64,000 bases of DNA from Sphingopyxis sp. (GTDB lineage: Bacteria > Pseudomonadota > Alphaproteobacteria > Sphingomonadales > Sphingomonadaceae): the NCBI RefSeq assembly GCF_051861155.1, contig NZ_JBHYDE010000007.1, forward strand, positions 152,596 through 216,595, read 5' to 3'. Below the pieces are notes generated by a model, which worked only from the letters and a program-made list of their open reading frames with translations, did not search any database and was not told where the DNA came from. This document shows, in pieces, positions 7,728-64,000 of the stretch. Position 1 is the stretch's first letter. Each line of letters begins with the position of its first letter. Made by a program: the position numbers and the translations under genes.

Positions 7728-9665
7728 ATGCGCTATCTGGCCTTTCTCGCCGCCCTGACCTTGCCGCTCGCCGCCGCCTCGGCCGCCGAGGGCGACAAGC
7801 CGGCGGTCGAACCCAAGCCCGCGGCGCTGATCGCCGACGGGGTTCCCGAGGTGCCCGCCGAGCTGTCGGCAGCGACGCGGCCCTATATGGAAAATCGCGG
7901 CGCGGGTTTTGTCGGCTGGAACCCGGCCGACAAATCGATGCTGATCGCCACCCGGTTCGGCAACACCGCGCAGCTCCACCGCGTCGCGATGCCGATGGGC
8001 GCGCGCAAGCAGCTGACCTTCGAGGCCGAGCCGGTCGGGTCGGGCAGCTGGGCGCCGCAAAAGGCCGATGTGATGCTGGTGCAGAAGGACATCGGCGGCA
8101 ACGAGTTCTTCCAGATCTATGCGATGAAAAACGGTCGGCTCGACCTGCTCACCGACGGCAAGAGCCGCAACGGGCTCAATGCGTGGAGCAAGGACGGCCA
8201 GCTCGTCGCCTTTACCTCGACGCTGCGCAACGGCCGCGACAGCGACATTTACGTCATGGACCCGCGCGATCCCAAGACGCGGCGGATGGTGGCCGAGGTC
8301 AAGGGGGGCGGCTGGGGGCTGCTCGATTTCGCCGCCGACAAGAGCTGGGCGCTCGTCGGCAAATTCACCTCGGTGCAAAAGGCCGACCTGTTTCGCCTCG
8401 ACCTCGCCAGCGGTGCGATGACGCCGATCGGCGACCACAGCAAGACGGTGGCGCTCGGCGGTGCGACGTTTGCCCCCGACGGCACGATCTGGATGACCAG
8501 CGACGAAGGCGGCGATTTCCAGCGGCTCGGGACGCTCGACCCGGCGACGGGCAAGTTCACCCCCAAAGGTCCGGCGGAAAAATGGGATGTCGACACGTTC
8601 GACATCGCCGACGACGGCAGCTTCATCGCCTATGTCGTCAACGAAGCGGGGACGTCGAAACTGCGGCTGTTCGATCCAAAGTCGGGCGCGGTGCGCACCG
8701 TCGACAAATTGCCCGCCGGGATCATCGGCGGGCTTGAAATCGCGCCATGGGGCGAAATCGGCATCACCTTCACCTCGGCGCGCAGCGCCGCCGATGCGTT
8801 CAGCGTCGATCCCAAAACGCTGGCGATCACCCGCTGGACCGAAAGCGAAACGGGCGGGCTCGACGTCACGCAGAATGTCGAACCCCAATTGGTGAAGGTG
8901 AAAAGCTTCGACGGGCTCGAGGTGTCGGGGTTCCTCTATCGCCCCGATCCCGCCAAATTCCCCGGCAAGCGCCCGCTGATCATGAGCGTCCACGGCGGTC
9001 CCGAAGCACAGTCGCGGCCGGGCTTCATGGGGCGAAGCAACTATCTGCTCAACGAAATGGGGATCGCGCTTTTCTATCCCAACGTCCGTGGTTCGACGGG
9101 GTACGGCAAGACCTTCGTCAGCCTCGACAACGGGCCGTTCAAGCGCGAGGATAGCGTCAAGGACATGGGCGCCTTCCTCGATGTGCTGGCTAAAGACAAG
9201 GGCCTCGACGCGGCGCGCTTCGGGCTGACCGGGGGCAGCTATGGCGGCTATATGTGCTATGCCGCCGCGACCCATTATGCCGCCAAGCTGCGCGCGAACC
9301 TGTGCGTCGTGGCGATTTCCAACTTCGTCACCTTCCTGGAGAATACCCAGGATTACCGCCGCGACCTGCGCCGCGTCGAATATGGCGACGAACGCGTGCC
9401 CGAACAGCGCGCCAAGCTGACGGAAATCTCGCCGTTGACCCGGGTCGCCGACATCAAGAAGCCGCTGTTCGTCGTCACCGGCGCCAACGACCCGCGCGTT
9501 CCCGCCTCAGAGGCCGATCAGATCGTCGCCGCGATCCGCAAGAATGACGGCACCGCCTGGCATCTGGTCGGCACCAACGAAGGTCATGGCTTCGCCAAGA
9601 AGGAAAATGCCGACTATAATTTCTGGGCGTCGCTGCTGTTCTGGAAGCAATATCTGCTGAATTGA
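7728..9665 (+). CDS. Exported S9-family (prolyl oligopeptidase-like) serine peptidase
   Basis: Signal peptide (MRYLAFLAALTLPLAAASA), beta-propeller region, catalytic GGSYGG, GANDPRV and EGHGF. Confidence 0.92.
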   Translation: MRYLAFLAALTLPLAAASAAEGDKPAVEPKPAALIADGVPEVPAELSAATRPYMENRGAGFVGWNPADKSMLIATRFGNTAQLHRVAMPMGARKQLTFEAEPVGSGSWAPQKADVMLVQKDIGGNEFFQIYAMKNGRLDLLTDGKSRNGLNAWSKDGQLVAFTSTLRNGRDSDIYVMDPRDPKTRRMVAEVKGGGWGLLDFAADKSWALVGKFTSVQKADLFRLDLASGAMTPIGDHSKTVALGGATFAPDGTIWMTSDEGGDFQRLGTLDPATGKFTPKGPAEKWDVDTFDIADDGSFIAYVVNEAGTSKLRLFDPKSGAVRTVDKLPAGIIGGLEIAPWGEIGITFTSARSAADAFSVDPKTLAITRWTESETGGLDVTQNVEPQLVKVKSFDGLEVSGFLYRPDPAKFPGKRPLIMSVHGGPEAQSRPGFMGRSNYLLNEMGIALFYPNVRGSTGYGKTFVSLDNGPFKREDSVKDMGAFLDVLAKDKGLDAARFGLTGGSYGGYMCYAAATHYAAKLRANLCVVAISNFVTFLENTQDYRRDLRRVEYGDERVPEQRAKLTEISPLTRVADIKKPLFVVTGANDPRVPASEADQIVAAIRKNDGTAWHLVGTNEGHGFAKKENADYNFWASLLFWKQYLLN

Positions 9666-52819: not shown

Positions 52820-52975
52820 CGGGTGGGTATCGCGCGACCCCATAGTTGATGCGTTGGGCGCCCGGCCACTGCTTGCCGAATGAAGCGGCTTACGTATGCG
52901 CGTTGCAATCGCGCCCCCGCTCCGCCATTTCCGCTGATGGGTATCCGAGGGGATTGGCGTGCCAAGGACATTATC

Positions 52976-54439
52976 GTGAGCGTGAAAGTCGAGACATTGG
53001 TGCTGTTCGGCGCGACGGGCGACCTGGCGCAGCGCATGCTCTTTCCTTCGCTCTACAACCTCCACCTCGACGGGCTGCTCGCCGACGCGCTGACGATCAT
53101 CGGGTCGGGACGCTCGGCGATGGACCGCGCCGCATTTCACACCCAGGTCCGCGCGGCGCTGGCCGAACATCTGCCCGCCGACCGTATCGATCCGGGCGCG
53201 GTCGATGCGTTCGTGGCGCGCATCGATTATTGTGCGATCGATGCCGGGGCGGGAACCGGCTATGACGATCTTGCCGCCCTGCTCGGCGACCGGATGCAGC
53301 GCCCGATCGGCGTGTATCTGTCGACCCCGCCGTCGATGTTCGGGCCGATCGCACAGGGGCTGAAGGCCGCGAACATCGCCTGCGCCGAATGCCGCATCGC
53401 GATGGAAAAGCCGATCGGGCAGGATCTCGCTTCATCGCGCGATGTGAATGCCCAGGTCGGCGACGCCTTCGCCGAAGACCGGGTGTTCCGCATCGACCAT
53501 TATCTCGGCAAGGAAACGGTGCAGAACCTGCTTGCGCTGCGCTTTGCCAATATGTTGTTCGAACCGTTGTGGAACGCGCAGGCGATCGATCATGTCCAGA
53601 TCACCGTCGCCGAAACCGTCGGGCTGGAGGGCCGCGTCTCCTATTATGACGGGGTCGGCGCATTGAAGGATATGGTGCAGAACCATATGCTGCAATTGCT
53701 CGCGATCATCGCGATGGAGCCGCCCGCGAGCGTCAGCGCGACTGCGGTGCGCGACGAAAAGGTCAAGCTGCTGCGCTCGTTGCGCAAGATGAGCGCCGCC
53801 GATGTGAAGGCGCACAGCGTCAAGGGGCAATATAGCAGCGGCGCGGTGAACGGCGGCGCGGTGACCGGCTACGCCGACGAACTCGGCCAGCCATCGAACA
53901 CCGAAACCTTTGTCGCATTGAAGGCCTATATCGACAATTGGCGCTGGAAAGGCGTGCCCTTTTACCTGCGCACCGGCAAGCGCATGCCGCAGCGCAAGTC
54001 GGAGGTGCTGATCCAGTTCAAGCCGGTGCCGCACAATATCTTCGCGCGCGTCGGCGCCGGCAAGCTCGACGCCAATATGATGATCATCAACCTGCAGCCC
54101 GAGGAAAATATCCGGGTGCGGGTAATGGCGAAACAGCCCGGGCTCGATCGCGACGGGGTGAAGCTGAAAGAGGTGACGATGGACGTCTCGCTCTCGCACA
54201 GCTTTGCCGGCGAGCGGCGGCGGATCGCTTATGAGCGGCTGCTGCTCGATTTCATCGAGGGCGACCAGACTTTGTTTGTGCGCCGCGACGAGGTCGAGGC
54301 GCAGTGGCAGTGGATCGATTCGATCCGCGACGCCTGGGCCGACGTCGACATGGCGCCGCAGAATTACACCGCGGGCAGTTGGGGGCCGTCGAGCGCGATC
54401 GCGCTGATCGAACGCGACGGGGCAAGCTGGCATGATTAA
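52976..54439 (+). CDS. zwf: Glucose-6-phosphate 1-dehydrogenase
   Basis: FGATGDLA, MEKPIG, RIDHYLGKE, DMVQNH and FYLRTGKR; probable GTG start after AAGGA. Confidence 0.97.
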   Translation: MSVKVETLVLFGATGDLAQRMLFPSLYNLHLDGLLADALTIIGSGRSAMDRAAFHTQVRAALAEHLPADRIDPGAVDAFVARIDYCAIDAGAGTGYDDLAALLGDRMQRPIGVYLSTPPSMFGPIAQGLKAANIACAECRIAMEKPIGQDLASSRDVNAQVGDAFAEDRVFRIDHYLGKETVQNLLALRFANMLFEPLWNAQAIDHVQITVAETVGLEGRVSYYDGVGALKDMVQNHMLQLLAIIAMEPPASVSATAVRDEKVKLLRSLRKMSAADVKAHSVKGQYSSGAVNGGAVTGYADELGQPSNTETFVALKAYIDNWRWKGVPFYLRTGKRMPQRKSEVLIQFKPVPHNIFARVGAGKLDANMMIINLQPEENIRVRVMAKQPGLDRDGVKLKEVTMDVSLSHSFAGERRRIAYERLLLDFIEGDQTLFVRRDEVEAQWQWIDSIRDAWADVDMAPQNYTAGSWGPSSAIALIERDGASWHD

Positions 54440-54446
54440 CTTGAAA

Positions 54447-54537
54447 CGTCGCCCCCGCGAAGGCGGGGGCCGCTATCGACCTTACTCTTCATCGCGGCAC
54501 AGACCCTCCAGCGGCCCCCGCCTTCGCGGGGGCGACG
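54447..54537. repeat. CGTC-tagged REP dimer, family 1, copy 2 (between zwf and edd)
   Basis: 28-bp arms at 54447-54474 and 54510-54537, same arm sequence as copy 1. Confidence 0.9.
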
Positions 54538-54546
54538 GGAATAGTC

Positions 54547-56388
54547 ATGACTGATCTCCACCCCACCATCGCTACCGTCACCGACCGCATCATCGCTCGC
54601 AGCGCCCCGCGCCGCGCCGCCTACCTTGGACTGATGGACCGCCAGCGCGAGGCGGGCACCAACCGCGGCAACCTGTCGTGCGGCAACTTGGCGCACGGCT
54701 TCGCCGCGGCGGGCGACGACAAGGCGGTGATCCGCACCGGCGGCGCGATGAACATCGGCATCGTCACCAGCTACAACGACATGCTCTCGGCGCATCAGCC
54801 CTATGGCCGCTACCCCGAACAGATCAAATTGTTCGCGCGCGAAGTCGCCGCGACCGCACAGGTCGCGGGCGGCGTTCCCGCGATGTGCGACGGGGTGACG
54901 CAGGGGCAGGCGGGCATGGACCTGTCGTTGTTCAGCCGCGACAATATCGCGCAGGGCACCGTGATCGCATTGAGCCACGCGATGTTCGAGGGCGCGTTGC
55001 TGCTCGGCATCTGCGACAAGATCGTCCCCGGCCTCTTGATTGGTGCGCTGCGTTTCGGTCACCTGCCGCAGATATTGATCCCCGCGGGGCCGATGCCCTC
55101 GGGCCTCGCGAACAAGGAAAAGCAGCGCATCCGCCAGCTCTATGCCGAGGGCAAGGCGAGCCGCGACGAACTGCTCGAGGCCGAAGCGGCGAGCTATCAC
55201 GGCGCGGGCACCTGCACCTTTTATGGCACCGCGAACTCGAACCAGATGATGATGGAGCTGATGGGGCTGCACGTCCCCGGCAGCGCCTTCACCAACCCCG
55301 GCACGAAATTGCGCCAGGAACTGACCCGCGCCGCGACGCACCGGGTGGCCGAAATCGGCTGGGACGGCAGTGATTATCGCCCGCTGGCGCGCTGCGTCGA
55401 CGAGAAAGCGATCGTCAACGCCGCGATCGGGCTGCTCGCGACCGGCGGCTCGACCAACCATGCGATCCACCTGCCCGCCATCGCGCGCGCCGCGGGGATC
55501 ATCATCGACTGGCAGGATTTCGACGAGCTCAGCCATGCGGTGCCGCTGCTCGCGCGCGTCTATCCGAACGGCGCGGGCGATGTGAACAATTTCCACGCCG
55601 CGGGCGGCATTGGCTATGTCGTGCGCGAGTTGCTCGATGCCGGGTTGCTGCACGGCGATGTGCTGACCGTCGGCGGAACGATGGCCGATTATGGCAATGA
55701 ACCGGTGCTGGCCGGTGATGCCCTGCAATGGCAGGCCGCCCCTGCGACCAGCCGCGACGACACGATGCTGCGCCCTGTCGCCGCGCCCTTCTCGCCCGAC
55801 GGCGGCATGCGCCTGCTCGCGGGCAATCTCGGCCGCGCGATCATCAAGACCAGTGCGGTGGCCGAGGATCGCTGGACGATCGAGGCGCCGTGCCGGATCT
55901 TCGACAATCAGGATGCGGTGCTGGCGGCGTTCAAGGCGGGCGAACTCGAACAGGACGTCATCGTCGTCGTGCGGTTCCAGGGGCCGCGTGCCAACGGCAT
56001 GCCCGAACTCCACAAACTGACCCCCGCGCTCGGCGTCTTGCAGGACCGCGGCTTCCGCGTCGCGCTGCTCACCGACGGCCGCATGTCGGGCGCCAGCGGC
56101 AAGGTGCCCGCGGTCATCCATCTGTCGCCCGAAGCCTTGCCGGGCCCTGACGGGGTCAGCGGCCCGCTCGCCTTCCTCGCCGATGGCGACATCGTTCGCG
56201 TCTGCGCGCGCCAGGGCGAGGTGCTGGCACTCGTCGATCCCGCGATCTGGGCCGCGCGCTCGCCCGCTGCCGCCCCGCCGCCCGCGCTCGGCGTCGGCCG
56301 CGAACTTTTCGCCTTGTTCCGCCACCACGCCGACGAAGCCGAAAAGGGTGGGTCGGCGGTGCTCGCGGCGATGGAAACGGTAATCTAG
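54547..56388 (+). CDS. edd: 6-phosphogluconate dehydratase
   Basis: [48 protein letters not shown] and [10 protein letters not shown]. Confidence 0.98.
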
Positions 56389-56389
56389 C

Positions 56390-56469
56390 TCGTCGCCCCC
56401 GCGAAGGCGGGGGCCGCTGGCGACCTTGCGCAACTCTGATAGCGGCCCCCGCCTTCGCGGGGGCGACGA
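56390..56469. repeat. CGTC-tagged REP dimer, family 1, copy 3 (between edd and eda)
   Basis: 29-bp arms at 56390-56418 and 56441-56469. Confidence 0.9.
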
Positions 56470-56479
56470 AGGAATAAAA

Positions 56480-57100
56480 ATGACCGACAATAGCATCGAC
56501 CAGATCATGCGCCTTGCCCCCGTCATCCCGGTGATCGTCATCGACCGGGTCGAACACGCGGTGCCGATGGCCGAGGCGCTCGTCGCGGGTGGGCTGACCG
56601 TCCTCGAAGTCACCCTGCGGACCCCCGCCGGGCTCGACGCCATCGCCGCGATGAAAGCGGTCAAGGGCGCGGTCGTCGGCGCGGGCACCGTGCTCGATCC
56701 CGCGATGCTGGCCGCCGCGATCCACGCGGGGGCCGAGTTCATCGTCTCGCCGGGCCTCACCGACAATCTCGGCAAAGCCGCCGTCGCCAGCGGCATTCCG
56801 TTCCTGCCCGGCACCGCCAACGCCGGTGACATCATGCGCGGCATGGACCTCGGCCTCGACCGCTTCAAATTCTTCCCCGCGGCGACCAGCGGCGGCATCC
56901 CGGCGCTCAAGGCGCTCGCCGGACCCTTCGGTCAGGCGCGCTTTTGCCCGACCGGCGGCATCAGCCTCGCGACCGCGCCCGACTGGCTCGCGCTCGAAGC
57001 CGTGCTGTGCGTCGGCGGCAGCTGGGTTGTCCCGTCGGGGCCGCTCGACCCGGCGCGGATCGAGACGCTCGCGCGCGAGGCTGCAGCACTGGCGTCCTGA
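56480..57100 (+). CDS. eda: KDPG/KHG aldolase
   Basis: EVTLRT, VGAGTV, FIVSPG, KFFPA and CPTGG; start trimmed to ATG 56480. Confidence 0.97.
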   Translation: MTDNSIDQIMRLAPVIPVIVIDRVEHAVPMAEALVAGGLTVLEVTLRTPAGLDAIAAMKAVKGAVVGAGTVLDPAMLAAAIHAGAEFIVSPGLTDNLGKAAVASGIPFLPGTANAGDIMRGMDLGLDRFKFFPAATSGGIPALKALAGPFGQARFCPTGGISLATAPDWLALEAVLCVGGSWVVPSGPLDPARIETLAREAAALAS

Positions 57101-57205
57101 CCGTCGCCTCGGCCTGCGCGGGGACGACGAATTGGGCGCATTGATAAACGCCATCTTTACTGCCATCGTGCAGAGAAAGGCGGCAATATAGCCGCCCGTG
57201 GGGAG

Positions 57206-58816
57206 ATGCGCGTGCCAAGACCGCAGCCGCATTTGGAAGAAGTGCTCGCGTCCGAACCCGGATCGCATATCGCCGCTTTGTTCGATTTCGACGGCACGAT
57301 CATCTCGGGCTACTCCGCCACCGCAATGCTGCGTGAGAAATTCCAGCGCCGCGAAATGTCGATGGAGGAAATCGCCGAAACCGCGCAGGTCATCGCGCAG
57401 CACAGTCTGGGCACCATCGGCTTTTCGGGGCTGATGTCGGGCGCCGCCAAATTCATGAAGGGCGTCGACGAGGAAAGCTTCATCGAGTTCGGCGAAGAAC
57501 TCTACAAAAAGCATATCGCGCGCAAAATCTATCCCGAAACCCGCGCGATCATCGAAGCGCATCAGGCGAAGGGCCACCGCGTCGCGATCATCTCGTCGGC
57601 AACGATCTATCAGATCGAACCGACCGCGCGCGACCTCGGCATCACCGACATCAAATGCTCGGCCTATGAGATCGAGGATGGGGTGTTCACCGGCGAGATC
57701 ATCCGCCCGCTGTGCTTCGGCGAGGGCAAGGTGCTCGCCGCCGAGGAACTCGCCGCCGAATATGACCTCGATTTGGGTCAAAGCTTTTTCTATTCGGACA
57801 GCGACGACGACATCGAACTGCTCGAACGCGTCGGCAAGCCGCGCCCGCTCAACCCGAATTTGAAACTGAAAGCCATCGCTGAAGAAAATGGCTGGCCGGT
57901 CCAGCGTTTCGGCAGCCGCGGCACGCCGTCGTGGGTCGACTACACGCGCACCATCTACGCGACGGGCTCGCTCGTCGGCGCGTTCGCCGCGGGGCTGCCG
58001 ATCTGGGCGCTGACGCGTTCGCAGCGTGAGGCCGCCAATTTCTCGATCGGGCTGTTCGGCGATTTCGCGACCGCGATCACCGGGGTCGAATTGGAGGTCG
58101 AGGACGAGAAGAATCTCTGGTCCTCGCGCCCCTGCGTCTTCATCTTCAACCATCAGAGCAAGGCGGACGTGATGATCCTCGCCAAGCTCATCCGCCGCGA
58201 CATGGGCGGGGTGGGCAAAAAAGAGATCAAGGACATCCCCATCCTCGGCAAGCTGATGGAATGGGGCGGGACCGTCTTCGTCGACCGCGCCGACGGCAAG
58301 AGCGCGATCAAGGCGATGGAGCCGCTGGTCGATGCCATCAAGGTCGAGGGCAAGTCGATCTGCATCTCGCCCGAGGGCACGCGCAGCCTGACGCCCAAGC
58401 TGGAGCCGTTCAAGAAGGGCGCCTTCCACCTCGCGATGCAGGCCGGGGTGCCGATCGTCCCGATCGTGATTCACAATGCGACCGACGTCGCGCCGAAGAA
58501 TGAATTCGTGATGCGCCCGGCGACGGTTCGGGTGACCGTGCTGCCGCCGGTCGACACGTCGGGGTGGACGCCGAAGACAATCAACAATCATGTCCGCGAC
58601 GTCCGCAACATGTTCCTGCAGACGCTGGGGCAGCCGGAGGAAAGCGCGGCAGAATCGGTGGCCAAGGAACCGGCGCCCGAACAAGCGGCGCCCGTGAAGG
58701 CTGAAAAGGCCAAACCGAAAAAGGCGGCGGTGAAGAAACCGGCGGCCAAGAAAAAGGCGCCGACGACAAAAGCGGCTACCAAGAAACCTTCCCCGCGAAA
58801 GGGAAGGGCCACCTAA
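57206..58816 (+). CDS. HAD-IB phosphatase / 1-acyl-glycerol-3-phosphate acyltransferase (PlsC) fusion
   Basis: N-terminal FDFDGT (HAD motif I), ISSAT, CFGEGK and YSDSDDD; C-terminal NHQSKAD (HxxxxD) and PEGTRS; Lys-rich tail. Confidence 0.9.
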   Translation: MRVPRPQPHLEEVLASEPGSHIAALFDFDGTIISGYSATAMLREKFQRREMSMEEIAETAQVIAQHSLGTIGFSGLMSGAAKFMKGVDEESFIEFGEELYKKHIARKIYPETRAIIEAHQAKGHRVAIISSATIYQIEPTARDLGITDIKCSAYEIEDGVFTGEIIRPLCFGEGKVLAAEELAAEYDLDLGQSFFYSDSDDDIELLERVGKPRPLNPNLKLKAIAEENGWPVQRFGSRGTPSWVDYTRTIYATGSLVGAFAAGLPIWALTRSQREAANFSIGLFGDFATAITGVELEVEDEKNLWSSRPCVFIFNHQSKADVMILAKLIRRDMGGVGKKEIKDIPILGKLMEWGGTVFVDRADGKSAIKAMEPLVDAIKVEGKSICISPEGTRSLTPKLEPFKKGAFHLAMQAGVPIVPIVIHNATDVAPKNEFVMRPATVRVTVLPPVDTSGWTPKTINNHVRDVRNMFLQTLGQPEESAAESVAKEPAPEQAAPVKAEKAKPKKAAVKKPAAKKKAPTTKAATKKPSPRKGRAT

Positions 58817-58832
58817 GCCATGACATTTTCCC

Positions 58833-58922
58833 CCGCTCGCCCTGAGCTTGTCGAAGGGCCGTTCTTCCTTTCAGACGGTGCAAAGGAAAAGAACGGCCCT
58901 TCGACAAGCTCAGGGCGAGCGG
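58833..58922. repeat. Palindromic repeat, family 2, copy 2
   Basis: 34-bp perfect inverted repeat at 58833-58866 and 58889-58922. Confidence 0.9.
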
Positions 58923-58979
58923 ACATGGGGGCTCGTGAAGGTCGTCATGGATGCGCCCCATTGACGGAGTGGGCGTAGA

Positions 58980-61319
58980 ATGGCCGACGGATCGCCCCGT
59001 ACCCCCATCGCGACGGAGGACGCGGCTGACCGGCTCTATATCATCGACGCGCGCAACGGGGTGGAGCGTCAGCTGCTGCTCGACTGGGTCCATGCCACGG
59101 CTGGTGACGATGACCCCCAATGGGCCAGCCTCGCGATCGAGGACGATGATCATGCGCTGCCGCTCGACATGCTGCGCGCGCGGCTGGGTGGGCTGCCGTC
59201 GCGGCAGGTGGTGCCGCTGCGCGTCGCGTGGCGCATTCCGGGGTTCGAGCGCGATCGCGCGCTCAAATTCCGCCACATCCTGTTCGGCGACCCGCGCCAT
59301 CCCGGCTCGCTGCGCGCGCGGCTGATCCTGCTGCGCGATCGGCGCCGGGCGCAGATATTGGTCGGCGAGGCAGCAACGCTCGACGCATTGCGCGACCGTT
59401 TCGCGGCCCAGACCGGCGGCGGCGACGCGGTTGGCGCCGACAGCGCCGAGTTTGCGGGTTTTGTCGCGCGGCAGGCGGGGCTGGCGCTCGACGTCGCCGA
59501 ACGCGGCATCCGCGGCACCCGCTACAAGGTGCCGCGCTTCGTCGCCGATGGCCTGCGCACCAGCCCCAAATTCCGCGCCGCACTCGCCGAATTGTCCGAG
59601 GCGACGGGCCGCCCGGTCGCCGACCTTTTCCGCGAAGCACGGCCGTTGATGAAAGAGGTCATCGCGCGGCCCAGCGCGCTGTTCCTCGACCTGCGCGCCC
59701 GGCTCGACCGCATGATGTTCGGTGGCTATGCGCCCGAGATGGAGGTCGACGCCGCCGAGCTGGCAAGGCTGCGCGCGATCCTGCGCGAGCATCCGACCGC
59801 GATCCTGTTCACCCACAAGACCTATATCGACGGCGCGACGCCCAGCCGCCTGACCTATGAGAATGACATGCCGATGCTGCACAGCTTCGGCGGCGCCAAT
59901 CTTGACTTCGCGATCATGGGCGAATTTTTCCGCCGCTCGGGCATGATCTTCATCCGCCGCAGCTTTCAGGACCAGCCGGTCTACAAGCTCGTGCTGCGCC
60001 ATTATATCGCCTGGCTGCTCGCCAAGCGTTTCCCTTTGAGCTGGGCGTTCGAGGGCACCCGGTCGCGGCTCGGCAAGCTGATGCCGCCCAAATATGGGCT
60101 GATGAAATATGTCCTCGACGCGGCGCATGCGACGGGGACGCGCGGGGTGCATTTCGTCCCCTTCGTGACCAGTTTCGACCTGATCCGCGATGTCGAGGAA
60201 TATGCCGCCGAACAGACCGGGCGCAACAAAAAGCCCGAGAGCCTGTCATGGTTCCTCGGCTATATGAAAAGCCTGAAGGAACCCTCGGGCCGCATCCGGC
60301 TCGACATCGGCAATCCCGTCGTGATCGACGAGGCGCCGGGCCCCGACGACAAGCGCGCGCTCGAGCGGATCGCCTTTGCGGTTGCGGTCGAGGCGAACCG
60401 CGTCACCCCGCTCACCGTCACCTCGGTGATGTGCCTGACCCTGCTCGGCATGGCGCCGCGCGGGGCGACCGCCGCCGAACTGCTCGGTGCGATCGGCGCG
60501 GTGAGCGACTGGGCGCGGGCGCGCGATATCCGGCTCAGCAGCGAACTCGCCAGCGGCGATCGCGCCGCACTTGCGGTGACGGTCGATACGCTGGTCGAAA
60601 GCGGGCTGCTGACGCGCTATGAAGCGGGCAGTGAGCGCGTCTATTCGATCGACCCCGCCAAGCATCCGATGGCGAGCTATTATCGCAACATCATCGCGCA
60701 TCATTTCCTCGACCGTGCGATGATCGAACTGGCGCTGTTCGAACTCCGCGATGCCGACAGCGGCGACGCGACCGCCGCCTTCTGGGCAAAGATCGATCGC
60801 CTGCGCGATCTGTTCAAATTCGAATTTTTCTATCCGCCGCGCGACGAGCATCGCGCCGCGATCGAGGCCGAACTCGCACGCATCGATCCGGTGTGGGACC
60901 GCCGCCTCGCCAGCGGCGACCGCGGCATCGCGCAGTTGCTGCGCCGCTGCCAGCCGGTCGTCGGGCACGCCATCTTGCTGCCGTTCACCGAGGCGTATTC
61001 GGTCGTCGCTGATCTGCTTGCGCGCGCCAAGCCGGGCGACGTTGTCGATGAAAAGGCGCTGGAGAATGCGGCGCTTACCGAGGGCAAACAGGCCTATCTG
61101 CTCCGCCGGATCAGCAGCGAGGCGGCGATCGGCAAGCTGTTGTTCGCCAACGGGCTGTCGCTGATGCGCCATATGGGGCTCGCCGAGGAAGCGACGCCAG
61201 CGAACCTCGCCGCGCGCCGTGCACTGCTGATGGAACTGCGCGGCCTCGCCAACGTCATGGAAACGATGCGGCTTTCGACGGTGGCACTGGCCGACCGGTT
61301 GCCGGGGTCGGGAGAGTGA
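58980..61319 (+). CDS. PlsB-type glycerol-3-phosphate acyltransferase (actinobacterial PlsB2-like architecture)
   Basis: HKTYID (HxxxxD), SFGGANL, IFIRRSF and FEGTRSRLGKL; 779 aa with an extra N-terminal domain. Confidence 0.88.
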   Translation: MADGSPRTPIATEDAADRLYIIDARNGVERQLLLDWVHATAGDDDPQWASLAIEDDDHALPLDMLRARLGGLPSRQVVPLRVAWRIPGFERDRALKFRHILFGDPRHPGSLRARLILLRDRRRAQILVGEAATLDALRDRFAAQTGGGDAVGADSAEFAGFVARQAGLALDVAERGIRGTRYKVPRFVADGLRTSPKFRAALAELSEATGRPVADLFREARPLMKEVIARPSALFLDLRARLDRMMFGGYAPEMEVDAAELARLRAILREHPTAILFTHKTYIDGATPSRLTYENDMPMLHSFGGANLDFAIMGEFFRRSGMIFIRRSFQDQPVYKLVLRHYIAWLLAKRFPLSWAFEGTRSRLGKLMPPKYGLMKYVLDAAHATGTRGVHFVPFVTSFDLIRDVEEYAAEQTGRNKKPESLSWFLGYMKSLKEPSGRIRLDIGNPVVIDEAPGPDDKRALERIAFAVAVEANRVTPLTVTSVMCLTLLGMAPRGATAAELLGAIGAVSDWARARDIRLSSELASGDRAALAVTVDTLVESGLLTRYEAGSERVYSIDPAKHPMASYYRNIIAHHFLDRAMIELALFELRDADSGDATAAFWAKIDRLRDLFKFEFFYPPRDEHRAAIEAELARIDPVWDRRLASGDRGIAQLLRRCQPVVGHAILLPFTEAYSVVADLLARAKPGDVVDEKALENAALTEGKQAYLLRRISSEAAIGKLLFANGLSLMRHMGLAEEATPANLAARRALLMELRGLANVMETMRLSTVALADRLPGSGE

Positions 61320-61338
61320 CTTTGGCATTTTTCAACTT

Positions 61339-61424
61339 CGTCATTGCGAGCGAAGCGAAGCAATCCAGAGCGAGTTTACGCCCACTCTGGATTGCCGCGT
61401 CGCCTTCGGCTCCTCGCAATGACG
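61339..61424. repeat. CGTC-tagged palindromic repeat, family 4
   Basis: CGTCATTGCGAGCGAAGCGAAGCAATCCAGAG ... CTCTGGATTGCCGCGTCGCCTTCGGCTCCTCGCAATGACG. Confidence 0.88.
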
Positions 61425-61442
61425 GCCGATTAGGAGGATAGG

Positions 61443-62996
61443 ATGCTCAAACAGCTCAGCGCGCAGGACGCCCAGTTCCTCTATACGCAGACCGCGAACA
61501 ATCTGACGCATATCATGGGTGTCTATATCTATGACCCCTCGACCGCGCCCGGCGGCTTCGTGCGGTTCAAGGATATCATCCGCCACGTCGAAAGCCGCGT
61601 CGACACATCGCCGCTTTTCAAGCGCCGCCTCCACCGCCTGCCGTTCGACATGGACCATCCCTATTGGGTGGAGGACGAGCATTTCGACATCGAGGCGCAT
61701 ATGAGCCACGCGCGGCTGCCCGAACCCGGCGACTGGCGGCAATTCTGCATCGCGGTGGCGCGCTATTTCTCGAAGCCGATGGATATGAACCGTCCGCTGT
61801 GGGACATTTATATCATCGAGGGGCTCGACCGGATTCCGGGCATCCCCAAGGGCAGCTTTGCGATGCTGCACCGCGTCCACCACGCAGCGGTCGACGGCGC
61901 GTCGGGCGCGCATGCCTTTATCGCGATGAGCGATATCGACGCGCAGGGCACCCCGGCGATCGCCGAACCGCCGCCGATCGAAGCGCTGGGTCAGGCACCC
62001 ACGAGCAGCGAAACCCTTTCGCGCGCCTGGTCGGCGTCGATGCAGTCGCCGGTCAAGTTCATGAACGCGCTGATGAAGATGTCGCCCGCGATCATCTCGT
62101 CGGCGCGCAAGGCGATCGAGGGCGGGATGACCGCTGGGGTCCCCGAAACGCGCTTCAACGTCCCCGTCGGCCCGCACAAGATGTTCGACGGCACGTCGGT
62201 CGCGCTCGCCGACGTGGCGGCGGTGCGCAAGAAGGTTCCAGGCGCGACGGTCAACGACGTCGTGCTGACCACGGTTGGCGGCGCGCTGCGCAAATATCTC
62301 GCGAAGCACAAGGAATTGCCGAAGGACAGCCTGGTCGCGGTCGCGCCGGTCAATTTGCGCGGCAAAGGGGGCAAGGCGAGCACGCCGGGTAACCAGGTGT
62401 CGGCGATGAGCGTGCCGATCCGCACCGACATCGCCGACCCGCTCGCGCGGCTTGCGGCGGTTCGCGATTATACGGTCGAGGCCAAGGAAGCGAAGGCGGG
62501 GGTCAGCGCGCGGATCATGACCGACCTGTCGCAGCATATTCCGGGCGCGACGATGGCGGCGGTCGCGCGGCTCGTGACCAGCGAGCGCTTTGCGGTGCGC
62601 GGCACCAACCTGTTCATCTCGAACGTGCCGGGCGCGCAGGTGCCGCTCTATCTGGCGGGCGCGCAGCTCGTCACGCAACATGGGATGGCGCCGCTCGCGA
62701 ACAATATGGGGCTGTTCGTTGCGACCCCCAGCTATAATGGCCGGATCGCCTTTTCGCTGATCTCCGAACGCGCGGTGATGCCCGACATCGCCTTTTTCCG
62801 GACCTGTATCGAGGAAAGTTTCGCTGAACTGATGACGGCGGTGCCCAAGCCCGAGAAAGCCAAAGCCGCTACGGCAACGCCGAAAACGGCAGCAAAGCCG
62901 AAGCCGAAACCGAAGGCCGTCCCAAAACCTGCCGCCAAGCCCAAGGTGAAACCGGTTGCCAAAAACAACGCAACCGGCAAGACTCGCAAAAAATAA
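61443..62996 (+). CDS. Wax ester synthase / diacylglycerol acyltransferase (WS/DGAT)
   Basis: LSAQDAQFLY, PLWDIYIIEGL, catalytic HHAAVDG, TVNDVVL, GNQVS and SNVPG; Lys/Pro/Ala tail. Confidence 0.95.
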   Translation: MLKQLSAQDAQFLYTQTANNLTHIMGVYIYDPSTAPGGFVRFKDIIRHVESRVDTSPLFKRRLHRLPFDMDHPYWVEDEHFDIEAHMSHARLPEPGDWRQFCIAVARYFSKPMDMNRPLWDIYIIEGLDRIPGIPKGSFAMLHRVHHAAVDGASGAHAFIAMSDIDAQGTPAIAEPPPIEALGQAPTSSETLSRAWSASMQSPVKFMNALMKMSPAIISSARKAIEGGMTAGVPETRFNVPVGPHKMFDGTSVALADVAAVRKKVPGATVNDVVLTTVGGALRKYLAKHKELPKDSLVAVAPVNLRGKGGKASTPGNQVSAMSVPIRTDIADPLARLAAVRDYTVEAKEAKAGVSARIMTDLSQHIPGATMAAVARLVTSERFAVRGTNLFISNVPGAQVPLYLAGAQLVTQHGMAPLANNMGLFVATPSYNGRIAFSLISERAVMPDIAFFRTCIEESFAELMTAVPKPEKAKAATATPKTAAKPKPKPKAVPKPAAKPKVKPVAKNNATGKTRKK

Positions 62997-63019
62997 ACCA
63001 TGTCTTGCAGGAAGACTAA

Positions 63020-64000
63020 ATGCTTTTCACCCCGACGCTCAGCGCCGACCGCGATCTCGTGACCGCGACCGATTACATCGCCTGGGCCAAGGCGGCGCGC
63101 GAACATGACCGGAAATCGGGCCTCCAGGCGTGGCGCGACGCCGACGAAAGCAGGTATTTCGATTATAAGGCCATTCGGGCAAGGCTCGAAAAGCTGCGCA
63201 AGCTGTCGGCGGCGGGCGACGTCAAGGGGCTGCTGTTCGTTCTGAACGAAGGCATCCACGGCAATATCGACGGCATGGGGCACGAGCGGCTGTATCAAAA
63301 GGCGCGTTTCGGCACGAAAAAGCTGATCGAGGATTATGTCGCCGAGGTCGTCGCCTCGCTGGACAAGATCGCGGCGTCGCGCGGCATCGGCCGCGAGGAA
63401 AAGCGCGATTTCTTCCGCCGCGCCCAGCATTGCTACGGCCGGTCGGCGCTGCTGCTGTCGGGCTCGGGCAGCTTCCTCTTTTTCCATATCGGCGTCGTGA
63501 AGGCTTTGTGGGAAGAGGGCGTGTTGCCCGCGATCATGTCGGGTGCCAGCGGCGGGTCGATCGTCGCCGCCGTTGTTTGCACGCGCAAGAACAGCGATAT
63601 CGGTGCCTTTCTCGCAAGCGATCGTCTGGCAAACCCGGCGCGTGATCCCGAACAGAAAAGATTGGCGCCCGACGAGGTCCGCGACCGGCTGGCCGAGCTG
63701 ATCCCCGACTTGACGTTTCAGGAGGCCTATGAGGTCAGCGGCCGGCACCTCAACGTCTCGGTCGCGCCTGCCGAAAAGCATCAGAACGGGCGGCTGCTCA
63801 ATGCGATCACCGCGCCGAACGTGCTGATCCGCGAAGCGGTGCTGGCGTCGTGCGCGGTCCCCGGCGTGTTCCCGCCGGTGATGCTGATGGCGCGCAACGA
63901 CAAGGGCGACCGGGTGCCGTACCAGCCCGACCGCCGCTGGGTCGATGGATCGGTGACGCACGATATTCCGACCAAGCGCCTCGAACGGCTTTATGGGGTC
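63020..64000 (+). CDS. DUF3336 + patatin lipase (SDP1/Tgl-like), truncated at the window end
   Basis: Read by hand, not in the ORF track: MLFTPTLSADRDLVTATDYIAWAKAAREHD..., GRSALLLSGSGSFLFFHIGVVKAL, SGASGG (GxSxG), SCAVPGVF and WVDGSV. Confidence 0.88.
   Translation, partial: MLFTPTLSADRDLVTATDYIAWAKAAREHDRKSGLQAWRDADESRYFDYKAIRARLEKLRKLSAAGDVKGLLFVLNEGIHGNIDGMGHERLYQKARFGTKKLIEDYVAEVVASLDKIAASRGIGREEKRDFFRRAQHCYGRSALLLSGSGSFLFFHIGVVKALWEEGVLPAIMSGASGGSIVAAVVCTRKNSDIGAFLASDRLANPARDPEQKRLAPDEVRDRLAELIPDLTFQEAYEVSGRHLNVSVAPAEKHQNGRLLNAITAPNVLIREAVLASCAVPGVFPPVMLMARNDKGDRVPYQPDRRWVDGSVTHDIPTKRLERLYGV

Follow-up and report, generated by a model that had tools for sequence, protein, structure and literature searches.

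Near its 3' end the window, a stretch of 64,000 nucleotides of Sphingopyxis DNA, contains four plus-strand open reading frames with intact catalytic motifs, which code for a HAD-IB/PlsC fusion, a PlsB2-type GPAT, a WS/DGAT and a DUF3336-patatin lipase (Table 1). The original prediction of four such co-directional genes in a probable Sphingopyxis is borne out by Pfam and NCBIfam matches together with the motif positions, and by the nearest homologues, which come from Sphingopyxis sp. and S. solisilvae R366 (95-97% identity). The prediction had also taken the four-gene cluster to be complete in the window; the four genes are real, but the patatin gene and three more genes extend past its end, by 3.6 kb, for a total of seven co-directional genes. 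The added genes code for a monoacylglycerol lipase (MGL) homologue, a PlaF/ABHD6-like membrane lipase (abh) and a second GpsA. The 159-aa open reading frame that follows them has no family match.

Table 1. Features of the cluster and its flanks, in window coordinates; positions beyond the window end are given as window equivalents, in square brackets where contig (C7) coordinates come first.
Feature	Position	Strand	Basis or remark
zwf-edd-eda (Entner-Doudoroff genes)	52880..57100	+	directly 5' of cluster, co-directional
Conserved upstream region of cluster	57141..57205	+	~70 nt at least 90% conserved, 15 Sphingopyxis loci
HAD-IB::PlsC fusion	57206..58816	+	536 aa; Pfam, NCBIfam, motifs
Spacer with long REP/MITE-like palindrome	58817..58979		fold energy, genome-wide copies
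PlsB2-type GPAT	58980..61319	+	779 aa; NF002886, HKTYID
Spacer with second palindromic repeat and weak terminator-like hairpin	61320..61442		fold energy, copy count
WS/DGAT	61443..62996	+	517 aa; TIGR02946, HHAAVDG
DUF3336-patatin lipase	63020..64471 window-equivalent (G000:C7:215615-217066)	+	483 aa; first 327 aa inside window
MGL homologue (Hydrolase_4)	C7:217138-218052 [64543-65457]	+	PF12146, GHSMG
PlaF/ABHD6-like alpha/beta-hydrolase lipase	C7:218205-219137 [65610-66542]	+	matches to 6I8W, 4OPM, 7OTS
Second, module-linked gpsA	C7:219177-220178 [66582-67583]	+	Pfam
159-aa ORF	67564-68043 window-equivalent	+	after gpsA
Strongest terminator-like hairpin, 16 pairs	68073-68108 window-equivalent (L002 11669-11704)	+	hairpin

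The fusion protein, whose real start may be the GTG at 57212, matches Pfam HAD (PF12710, 116 bits) and Acyltransferase (PF01553, 109 bits), as well as NCBIfam TIGR01490 (HAD-IB, 158.6 bits with a cut-off of 98.3) and TIGR00530. Its HAD-IB phosphatase domain (residues 23-235, with DFDGT at residue 27) and its PlsC-type 1-acylglycerol-3-phosphate acyltransferase domain (residues 293-470, with NHQSKAD at 316) are separated in the structural model by two long helices (residues 243-292), and the C-terminal tail (residues 490-536) is rich in Lys, Ala and Pro. Structure matches include T. maritima PlsC (5KYM, 6e-20), 3FVV (7e-16) and SerB. Sequence and fold matches alike place the HAD domain in the SerB-like HAD-IB class and not with the lipin-like enzymes: the best matches are 3FVV, a protein of unknown function, and phosphoserine phosphatases, histidinol-phosphatase models score below cut-off, and lipin is absent among the 50 fold matches listed for this domain. 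We know of no phosphatidate phosphatase in the SerB-like HAD-IB subfamily. Residues D27, D29, T31, S130, K175, D198, D201 and D202 are invariant in 10 fusion proteins (67-90% identical to the Sphingopyxis one), an invariance that is silent on which substrate is used.

The GPAT, which had been called PlsB-type, is indeed a GPAT (domains GPAT_C and Acyltransferase, HKTYID at residue 279, PDB GPAT matches 9VUQ and 8E4Y), but by its sequence it is of the actinobacterial PlsB2 type, with 942.7 bits against the NCBIfam equivalog NF002886 (PRK03355; cut-off 721). The E. coli PlsB type is ruled out, TIGR03703 giving 147 bits where the cut-off is 618.5. The enzyme probably acylates glycerol-3-phosphate at sn-1, and probably 2-acyl-glycerol-3-phosphate too; its acyl donor would be acyl-CoA, which mycobacterial PlsB2 uses at sn-1 (PMC10593935). 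The WS/DGAT (WS_DGAT_cat and WS_DGAT_C domains, HHAAVDG at residue 146) scores 397.9 bits against TIGR02946 (cut-off 309.95), with full-length structure matches to the Marinobacter enzyme (6CHJ, 5e-44) and Acinetobacter AtfA (7NXG, 5e-38).

The patatin gene, whose product contains DUF3336 and Patatin domains with GASGG (Ser177) and DGS (Asp309) motifs, begins 23 nt after the WS/DGAT gene (median 26 nt in 71 loci), and its product is a candidate triacylglycerol (TAG) lipase. The MGL homologue, which probably starts at the ATG at window-equivalent 64606, has a GHSMG motif and matches PF12146 (263 bits), M. tuberculosis MGL (6EIC, 2e-59) and human MGLL (1e-43). The PlaF/ABHD6-like lipase has an N-terminal membrane helix, MRIVLILLFAPLIALALMYFVF, and matches 6I8W (1.7e-62), which we take to be PlaF, a membrane phospholipase A1, as well as 4OPM (9e-39) and ABHD6 (7OTS, 4e-30). 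The likely substrates of all three, judging from these matches, are acylglycerols; the prediction that the locus leads to TAG 'and back' is thus strengthened by the two lipases downstream of the patatin gene. The module GpsA is 40% identical to the tsaD-linked GpsA of the host (C1:447074) and 59-81% identical to the PlsB2-adjacent GpsA of other families and classes, and may be a dedicated supplier of glycerol-3-phosphate. The host genome also contains PhaC, and it retains PlsY, three other PlsC-family genes and the tsaD-linked gpsA, so that the module constitutes an additional acyltransferase route.

Promoter-like elements precede the fusion gene (TTGATA at 57141, 17 nt, CATCGT at 57164), followed by a hairpin, GGCGGC-N6-GCCGCC (57179-57196), and a Shine-Dalgarno sequence, GGGGAG (57200-57205). 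Outside the conserved block, the spacer that follows eda is not conserved among the 15 Sphingopyxis loci; in locus L076 the hairpin keeps its stem with a different loop, and a RIP-seq RNA contig of an S. granuli-like organism begins 24 nt ahead of the ATG and some 6 nt past the predicted start site. The block may serve as promoter and 5' hairpin. The palindrome between the fusion and PlsB2 genes (~58830-58922; RNA fold energy -109.5 kcal/mol) has an arm that recurs 42 times in the genome, and is strain-specific, missing from most other Sphingopyxis spacers; the second repeat (~61339-61425; -51.2 kcal/mol) has 32-42 copies genome-wide, and in the same spacer the stop of the PlsB2 gene carries a weak terminator-like hairpin. 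The two long palindromes could interrupt transcription in this strain. In S. granuli-like organisms, RNA-derived contigs include each of the seven genes and run across the junctions HAD-PlsC/PlsB2, WS/DGAT/patatin, patatin/MGL, MGL/abh and abh/gpsA, these being strandless assemblies from relatives, partly of the metatranscriptome kind that can contain DNA.

The ten-gene order is identical in all 61 Sphingopyxis loci that are not cut by a contig end (80 were fetched), the cluster genes being conserved to the same degree (median 82-94%) as zwf/edd/eda (87-92%). The same genes are also found together, in altered arrangement, in other families and classes; together with the fixed order in Sphingopyxis, this excludes chance adjacency. 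Few genera have a PlsB2-type gene: 5 of 112 in the family and 4 of 308 in the class. Gene orders and orientations vary among 10 other proteobacterial PlsB2 loci, where the adjacent genes are HAD-PlsC (10/10), gpsA (9/10), the MGL homologue (7/10), WS/DGAT (4/10) and patatin (2/10). Loci of genus g130 have the identical seven-gene order, with a WS/DGAT 60% identical, and lack zwf-edd-eda upstream; the latter genes are neighbours of the cluster in Sphingopyxis only, and lie outside the mobile module. The trees of PlsB2 and HAD-PlsC match one another but depart from taxonomy, indicating that the module moves horizontally: Sphingopyxis sequences cluster with those of other proteobacterial classes, including a 'Pseudomonadales bacterium' MAG representative (48% identity), and not with other Sphingomonadaceae.

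Among known systems the nearest is the actinobacterial operon, atf9-plsB-plsC in Rhodococcus jostii RHA1 and Rv2484c (tgs)-Rv2483c (plsC, HAD fusion)-Rv2482c (plsB2) in M. tuberculosis, which has the same three families, including HAD-IB::PlsC and the PlsB2 type; the anticipated parallel with Rv2482c-Rv2484c and with the logic of the Kennedy pathway holds at the level of gene families (Pfam, NCBIfam, PMC10699116). The RHA1 operon is co-transcribed (PMC4850399) and was proposed to encode all four Kennedy activities (PMC4850399; PMC10699116). A lipase/esterase adjoins the actinobacterial operon, lipQ in M. tuberculosis, whereas in Sphingopyxis the block includes three lipases (DUF3336-patatin, PlaF-like, MGL) as well as a gpsA of its own. 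The Sphingopyxis proteins are 33-34% identical to a Nocardia PlsB2 and HAD-PlsC pair, with the order HAD-PlsC, PlsB2, WS/DGAT as against PlsB2 then HAD-PlsC in Nocardia, and the host is Gram-negative, with PlsX/PlsY and two WS/DGATs, the second encoded at C7:31697-33088, versus about 15 in the actinobacterial system.

The cluster is confirmed and turns out larger than it first appeared, and clusters of its type were already known from sequence analysis of related bacteria. The suggestion that it is under-described in this lineage, made with the proviso that the literature might already hold it, is half true: "a complete Kennedy pathway next to ws/dgat" was reported for Sphingomonadaceae, in Parasphingorhabdus halotolerans JK6 and metagenome scaffold S1-6153 (PMC10351704, PLoS One 2023), the same family and the same idea. 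Our HAD-PlsC shares 66-75% identity with homologues that carry the names Parasphingorhabdus or Sphingorhabdus. That study, sequence analysis without experiments, leaves Sphingopyxis unmentioned, has 'patatin' nowhere and 'plsB' once in its main text, and describes Kennedy and beta-oxidation genes in the sphingomonad locus, not the patatin/MGL/PlaF-like set or a module-linked gpsA. Its gammaproteobacterial Arenicella/Woeseiaceae clusters do combine GPAT, PAP/AGPAT fusion, WS/DGAT, gpsA and lipase, in another class and gene order, and are known from genes alone. The lipase set also resembles, in its domain logic, the eukaryotic cascade of ATGL/Tgl4/SDP1 (patatin), HSL or ABHD6, and MGL, the DUF3336-patatin architecture being that of Tgl3/4/5 and SDP1; the bacterial lipases differ in forming one block with the synthetic enzymes, and the likeness would be one of function, with no orthology claimed.

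We consider it probable that the seven genes form a module that makes and turns over acylglycerols, TAG most likely, on top of the ordinary PlsX/PlsY/PlsC phospholipid pathway. GpsA would convert DHAP to glycerol-3-phosphate, PlsB2 would acylate sn-1 with acyl-CoA, and the PlsC domain sn-2, giving phosphatidate; the HAD-IB domain of the fusion, which the two-helix linker would keep at the membrane, would cleave off the phosphate and so produce diacylglycerol, to which WS/DGAT would add the third acyl chain. The DUF3336-patatin, PlaF/ABHD6-like and MGL enzymes would then break TAG down, by way of DAG and MAG, into glycerol and fatty acids. The analysis itself establishes the genes with their motifs, the conserved and elsewhere rearranged gene set, its status as an extra set in this genome, its horizontal history and its transcription in relatives; the acyl donor, the phosphatase activity of the HAD domain, the lipase substrates, TAG as the product and the physiological trigger are inferred. 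The literature searched contains no lipid data for Sphingomonadales strains, a point against this reading. The homologous RHA1 operon was described as 'house-keeping', and under nitrogen limitation its expression drops 5.4-fold (PMC4850399), so that a pure 'lipid-droplet storage' role should not be assumed.

The same RHA1 behavior suits a role mainly in acyl-CoA-dependent synthesis and remodelling of membrane glycerolipids, which we regard as unlikely though worth weighing. Here exogenous or alkane-derived fatty acids, as acyl-CoA, would enter phosphatidate and diacylglycerol in a PlsX/PlsY-type bacterium, the task of the PlaF-like, patatin and MGL enzymes would be to recycle phospholipids and lysolipids, and TAG would do no more than buffer fatty acids for a time. 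HAD-PlsC, PlsB2 and GpsA make up the conserved core; the three occur in one 100% complete genome (G925) that has no WS/DGAT at all, and genus g73 has a cluster without an internal one, so that the core is not strictly bound to TAG. The nearest solved relative of the abh product is the presumed phospholipase 6I8W, and mycobacterial PlsB2 feeds all glycerolipids (PMC10593935). Against this, in the family sample WS/DGAT is present in every one of the 11 genomes with PlsB2, compared with 81 of 301 (27%) overall; WS/DGAT lies inside the block in Sphingopyxis and g130, 23-26 nt before the patatin gene; and a phosphatase fused to the phosphatidate-forming enzyme would drive flux to DAG, off the CDP-DAG phospholipid route.

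The cluster would encode all steps from glycerol-3-phosphate to TAG only if its HAD domain acts as a phosphatidate phosphatase. The SerB-like class and its best matches would also fit dephosphorylation of lysophosphatidate to monoacylglycerol, or of a soluble phosphoester, with the rest of the module working as above; in the former case DAG would arise by acylation of MAG, which WS/DGATs can perform. In plant GPAT4/6 a SerB-like HAD fused to a PlsC-type domain converts lysophosphatidate to monoacylglycerol, and the MGL homologue is the commonest accessory gene of the module. We nonetheless find this alternative improbable: domain order and pathway order suit phosphatidate to DAG, the HAD catalytic residues are invariant (if not substrate-discriminating), and PAP2 genes are absent from Kennedy/ws-dgat clusters in every phylum (PMC10351704). 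For RHA1 the fused HAD has been put forward as the phosphatase of the Kennedy pathway (PMC4850399), and the HAD-AGPAT fusion likewise for the Sphingomonadaceae loci (PMC10351704, 2023).

Wax ester, the other product named in the original prediction, is unlikely as the main one, and we give very little credence to a cluster making it instead of TAG. WS/DGATs are bifunctional, and the nearest solved relatives come from the wax-ester producers Marinobacter and Acinetobacter; yet the genome has no strong match to a fatty acyl-CoA reductase (best PF07993 match 34 bits), which favors TAG, an Acr1-type SDR reductase being still conceivable, and all other genes of the module serve glycerol-based lipids.

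The window (G000:C7:152596-216595, contig C7 of the source genome) carries four long open reading frames on the plus strand between 57206 and 64000, with families assigned by Pfam and NCBIfam, and the contig continues the cluster on the same strand past the window end. The original prediction of a HAD/PlsC fusion, a GPAT, a WS/DGAT and a patatin lipase is upheld by the reading frames, domain matches and motifs, and is enlarged to a block of seven genes (see table). By their predicted products, these genes combine glycerol-3-phosphate (G3P) supply, three acyltransferases, a phosphatase-like domain and three lipase-type hydrolases. The guess that the DNA came from Sphingopyxis was also correct; the fusion has its nearest homologues in Sphingopyxis, with 95-97% identity, the closest being that of S. 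solisilvae R366. Upstream of the cluster and in the same orientation are zwf, edd and eda.

Genes and other features of the cluster, with window positions and supporting matches
Feature	Position	Strand	Evidence
HAD-IB phosphatase-like domain fused N-terminally to PlsC acyltransferase	57206-58816	+	PF12710 and PF01553; TIGR01490 158.6 bits (cut-off 98.3); TIGR00530
PlsB2-type GPAT, 779 aa	58980-61319	+	NF002886/PRK03355 equivalog 942.7 bits (cut-off 721); HKTYID at 279
WS/DGAT	61443-62996	+	both Pfam domains; TIGR02946 397.9 bits (cut-off 309.95); HHAAVDG at 146 (HHxxxDG motif)
DUF3336-patatin protein, 483 aa	from 63020, passes window end	+	PF11815 115.5 bits; PF01734 78.6 bits
Hydrolase_4 protein, monoacylglycerol lipase (MGL) homologue	after patatin gene	+	6EIC 2.4e-59, 3HJU 1.5e-43 over residues 13-281; GHSMG
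abh, alpha/beta hydrolase with N-terminal membrane helix	after MGL homologue	+	best match 6I8W (1.7e-62), then a 'Lipase' and human ABHD6
Module-linked gpsA	after abh	+	PF01210 and PF07479 (NAD(P)H G3P dehydrogenase domains)
Terminator-like hairpin, strongest of the region	~500 nt past gpsA	+	

The fusion protein has the motifs DFDGT at 27 and NHQSKAD at 316, the latter of the HX4D type. The GPAT, called PlsB-type in the original prediction, shares a fold family with E. coli PlsB but belongs to another subfamily, the actinobacterial PlsB2 type, because it scores above the cut-off of NF002886 and far below those of the E. coli-type PlsB equivalogs (TIGR03703, 147.4 versus 618.5 bits; NF003441, 142.7 versus 610 bits). 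The patatin protein has DUF3336 at its N-terminus and then a patatin domain that contains a Ser-Asp dyad (Ser177 in GASGG, Asp309 in DGS); this is the architecture of Tgl3/4/5 and SDP1, and the protein is a candidate triacylglycerol (TAG) lipase. A sequence search for structurally solved homologues of this protein produced none, and a literature search for bacterial DUF3336-patatin lipases found no paper. The Hydrolase_4 protein, whose best solved full-length relatives are Rv0183 of M. tuberculosis (2e-59) and human MGLL (1e-43), is a putative MGL on the basis of full-length similarity and its GxSxG nucleophile. The best match of abh, 6I8W, is PlaF of P. aeruginosa.

Two of the acyltransferases end in Lys/Ala/Pro-rich tails that resemble histone H1, at residues 490-536 of the HAD-PlsC fusion (window 58673-58813) and 467-517 of WS/DGAT (62841-62993), each protein having 17 Lys and Arg among its final 60 residues. 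Similar tails are seen in g130 and g73, two other genera of Sphingomonadaceae, and in stand-alone WS/DGATs of further members of the family, and they are missing in several more distant homologues. Possible binding partners of the tails are anionic surfaces, for instance lipid droplets, membrane or DNA.

The module is an extra pathway beside the host's own set of acyltransferases and gpsA. The same genome encodes PlsY, three more PlsC-family proteins and a PHA synthase (PhaC), as well as a second gpsA in the usual tsaD-gpsA arrangement; the cluster gpsA is 59-81% identical to gpsA copies of other modules, across classes, versus 40% to the tsaD-linked copy. A second WS/DGAT (478 aa, 30% identical; G000:C7:31697-33088) lies 180 kb from the cluster copy, some 120 kb ahead of the window, and almost every Sphingopyxis genome carries this paralogue. 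Much is known of TAG storage from actinobacteria and a small number of Gammaproteobacteria; to our knowledge, it has hardly been studied in Alphaproteobacteria, which are regarded as PHA storers. The source genome has both PhaC and the TAG module.

Within Sphingopyxis, the full order zwf-edd-eda-HADPlsC-PlsB2-WSDGAT-patatin-MGL-abh-gpsA is found in 61 of the 80 loci, and the remaining 19, broken by contig ends, agree with it as far as they can be read. The cluster proteins match the adjoining Entner-Doudoroff enzymes in degree of conservation, and the cluster WS/DGAT is present in 32 of 37 genomes of the genus, the genomes without it being mostly small. In one of the small ones (G012, 2.9 Mb), the genes right after zwf-edd-eda are diverged homologues of MGL and abh (55-59% identity; L114:893-6837); HAD-PlsC, PlsB2, WS/DGAT, patatin and gpsA are all absent from this locus, and there is no WS/DGAT elsewhere in the genome. 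In this reduced genome, the locus has the appearance of a cluster remnant. Base composition gives no signal of recent transfer, as the cluster GC of 0.647 is ordinary for the genome (0.653; 26th percentile) and GC3 resembles that of neighbouring genes, which fits long residence in the genus. The Entner-Doudoroff genes were considered as part of the module and rejected, because the adjacency holds in Sphingopyxis only and because, at the S. granuli locus (L076), the depth of RNA-derived contigs, a weak measure, drops almost to zero across eda and recovers at HAD-PlsC.

A search for related loci with a 10-sequence alignment gave Sphingopyxis loci only, and wider sampling was done with genome samples and 50% representatives. 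Of the 112 genera of the family, 35 have WS/DGAT homologues, and PlsB2-type genes are far rarer (5 of the 112, with 4/308 genera in the class sample and 4/211 in the phylum sample). Of 20 loci from other genera, 18 have a solitary WS/DGAT with 40-48% identity, and among the 20 only genus g130 has the seven-gene block as in Sphingopyxis. The HAD-PlsC fusion adjoins the PlsB2-type gene in all ten proteobacterial loci outside Sphingopyxis that have such a gene. Other neighbours there are gpsA (nine loci), the MGL homologue (seven), WS/DGAT (four) and patatin (two), in varying order and orientation. By these counts, the conserved core consists of HAD-PlsC, PlsB2 and GpsA. In one g73 genome (G285), the locus L104:4428-12672 contains HAD-PlsC, PlsB2, patatin, MGL, abh and gpsA, with no internal WS/DGAT; the sole WS/DGAT of this genome is on a different contig.

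In the PlsB2 tree of 81 sequences, Sphingopyxis, g73 and g130 form one clade with support of 100, nested in a group with proteobacteria of other classes, one 'Pseudomonadales bacterium' representative and one of Ca. Microthrix, and two other genera of Sphingomonadaceae group with Nocardia on the opposite side of the tree. The HAD-PlsC tree is consistent with this. Judged by the trees, the module has travelled horizontally as one unit and has entered the family more than once; the core was transferred between classes, and WS/DGAT and lipases were gained in some lineages. Among plasmid records, no sphingomonad plasmid with a PlsB2-type gene was found, the only matches being from Nocardia and Mycobacterium.

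WS/DGAT is present in all 11 PlsB2-positive genomes of the family sample, compared with 27% of all sampled genomes, and three module-bearing genomes without WS/DGAT in the cluster carry one elsewhere. E. coli K-12, taken as a control, lacks WS/DGAT. One complete module-bearing genome, however, has no WS/DGAT genome-wide, so that the association of the module with TAG is strong but not absolute, and the core may instead serve a general acyl-CoA-dependent glycerolipid route, a reading at odds with the regular presence of WS/DGAT in the family sample. The search of the genome for a fatty acyl-CoA reductase gave no convincing match, the best PF07993 hit reaching 34 bits; the wax-ester route was therefore rejected, and TAG is the likelier product.

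The closest characterised system is the actinobacterial operon atf9-plsB-plsC / Rv2484c-Rv2482c, which has in common with the Sphingopyxis cluster a HAD-IB::PlsC fusion, an adjacent PlsB2-type GPAT and an adjacent WS/DGAT with the HHxxxDG motif. In RHA1, atf9 shows 'house-keeping' behaviour. Mycobacterial PlsB2 performs acyl-CoA-dependent acylation at sn-1 of G3P and of 2-acyl-G3P (PMC10593935). The original prediction had held that the locus may be under-described in this lineage. This is weakened by a 2023 paper (PMC10351704), which describes a full set of Kennedy-pathway genes beside ws/dgat in Sphingomonadaceae, and the Sphingopyxis cluster adds one more example to an arrangement already in print. 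Sphingopyxis is not named in that paper, which also does not describe the lipase set and the module-linked gpsA for the sphingomonad locus. A literature search for experimental reports or lipid data on TAG or wax ester in any strain of Sphingomonadales found none.

The suggestion that the locus is self-contained, leading from G3P to TAG and back, follows a sound pathway logic, and its completeness depends on the putative phosphatase domain of the fusion. Which enzyme forms diacylglycerol (DAG) in bacterial TAG synthesis is a matter of debate; in oleaginous Rhodococcus, PAP2 enzymes show hardly any expression, and since 2016 the candidate has been the HAD fusion. The HAD domain was proposed to convert phosphatidate to DAG in RHA1 in that year (PMC4850399), and the proposal was repeated in 2023 (PMC10351704); no published assay of this conversion by the HAD domain was found in searchable papers. 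By analogy, the domain is a putative phosphatidate phosphatase (PAP), which would take a role in the scheme like that of lipin while differing from it in HAD family. Its catalytic positions are invariant in all ten fusion proteins compared, which are 67-90% identical to the present one. The DxDxT motif of lipin/Pah1-type PAP is present as DFDGT, a motif that all of the HAD superfamily shares. By sequence and predicted fold the domain is closest to 3FVV (TM-score 0.80 on the target) and SerB-family phosphoserine phosphatases, and lipin is not among the 50 fold matches listed for the fusion model; the domain is a SerB-like HAD-IB and not a member of the lipin family. The model (mean pLDDT 63, pTM 0.44, the HAD domain being the best part with pLDDT 70-88) was used for per-domain fold matches only, as it is too uncertain for domain packing or a geometry of 'channelling'. 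It places two long helices (residues 243-292) before the PlsC domain; at the equivalent position, PlsC of T. maritima carries a two-helix motif embedded in the membrane.

It is possible, although we would put the chances somewhat below even, that the fusion is a bifunctional lysophosphatidate acyltransferase/Mg2+-dependent PAP, representing a third (bacterial) PAP class derived from the phosphoserine-phosphatase branch of the HAD superfamily, and that with PlsB2 and a dedicated GpsA it makes up a mobile 'DHAP-to-diacylglycerol' cassette, expanded in Sphingopyxis and Sphingorhabdus to a full cycle of synthesis and lipolysis by WS/DGAT and the patatin, PlaF-like and MGL lipases. If so, Sphingopyxis, with one PlsB2, one HAD-PlsC fusion and two WS/DGATs, would offer much cleaner genetics than actinobacteria for a proof of the fusion's role. 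A Gram-negative host, single-copy core genes, freedom from mycolic-acid complications and a compact conserved cluster would make the question of the DAG-forming enzyme directly testable. This system, together with the picture of a mobile three-gene core, is of main value here, and the comparative result is of use for annotation and for metagenome surveys of neutral-lipid potential.

Evidence on transcription comes from assembled contigs aligned with the S. granuli locus, whose seven cluster proteins are 81-92% identical to the present ones. RNA-derived contigs of S. granuli-like relatives bridge five of the six cluster junctions: those from a pure-culture RNA-seq run span WS/DGAT/patatin, MGL/abh and abh/gpsA, and those from a metatranscriptome span HAD-PlsC/PlsB2, WS/DGAT/patatin/MGL and MGL/abh/gpsA. 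Of the four runs used, two are metatranscriptomes. A RIP-seq contig of an S. granuli-like strain begins 24 nt upstream of the start codon, just downstream of a promoter-like TTGATA-17-CATCGT; the latter is contained in a 70-nt stretch at least 90% conserved among 15 Sphingopyxis, followed on its 3' side by a hairpin with a constant stem and a variable loop. These data are suggestive of a promoter of the cluster's own and of read-through over most junctions, and they are weak because the contigs are strandless, derive from relatives and could contain DNA. In the region of the conserved element and the 5' hairpin (window 57141-57212), the Shine-Dalgarno sequence GGGGAG abuts the ATG at 57206, so that translation of HAD-PlsC may actually begin at GTG 57212.

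Intergenic gaps measure 23-163 nt, and the two longest in this strain are explained by palindromic repeats, two different long palindromes in the HAD-PlsC/PlsB2 (58817-58979) and PlsB2/WS-DGAT (61320-61442) spacers with predicted RNA fold energies of -109.5 and -51.2 kcal/mol, respectively. The palindrome arms recur 32-42 times in the genome in the manner of REP or MITE elements, most other Sphingopyxis lack them in these spacers, and they might attenuate transcription. RIP-seq contig depth is in the thousands at L076:4404-5371 (5' part of HAD-PlsC) and 8276-8759 (3' end of PlsB2 and the spacer) and in the tens elsewhere; either an RNA-binding protein attached there or a repeat could account for the peaks, contig depth being a poor measure. 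At the far end of the cluster, a 159-aa reading frame (L002:11160-11639 of the source-strain locus, equivalent to window 67564-68043) overlaps the gpsA stop codon and precedes the strong terminator; like the other small reading frames after gpsA, it has no Pfam family match.
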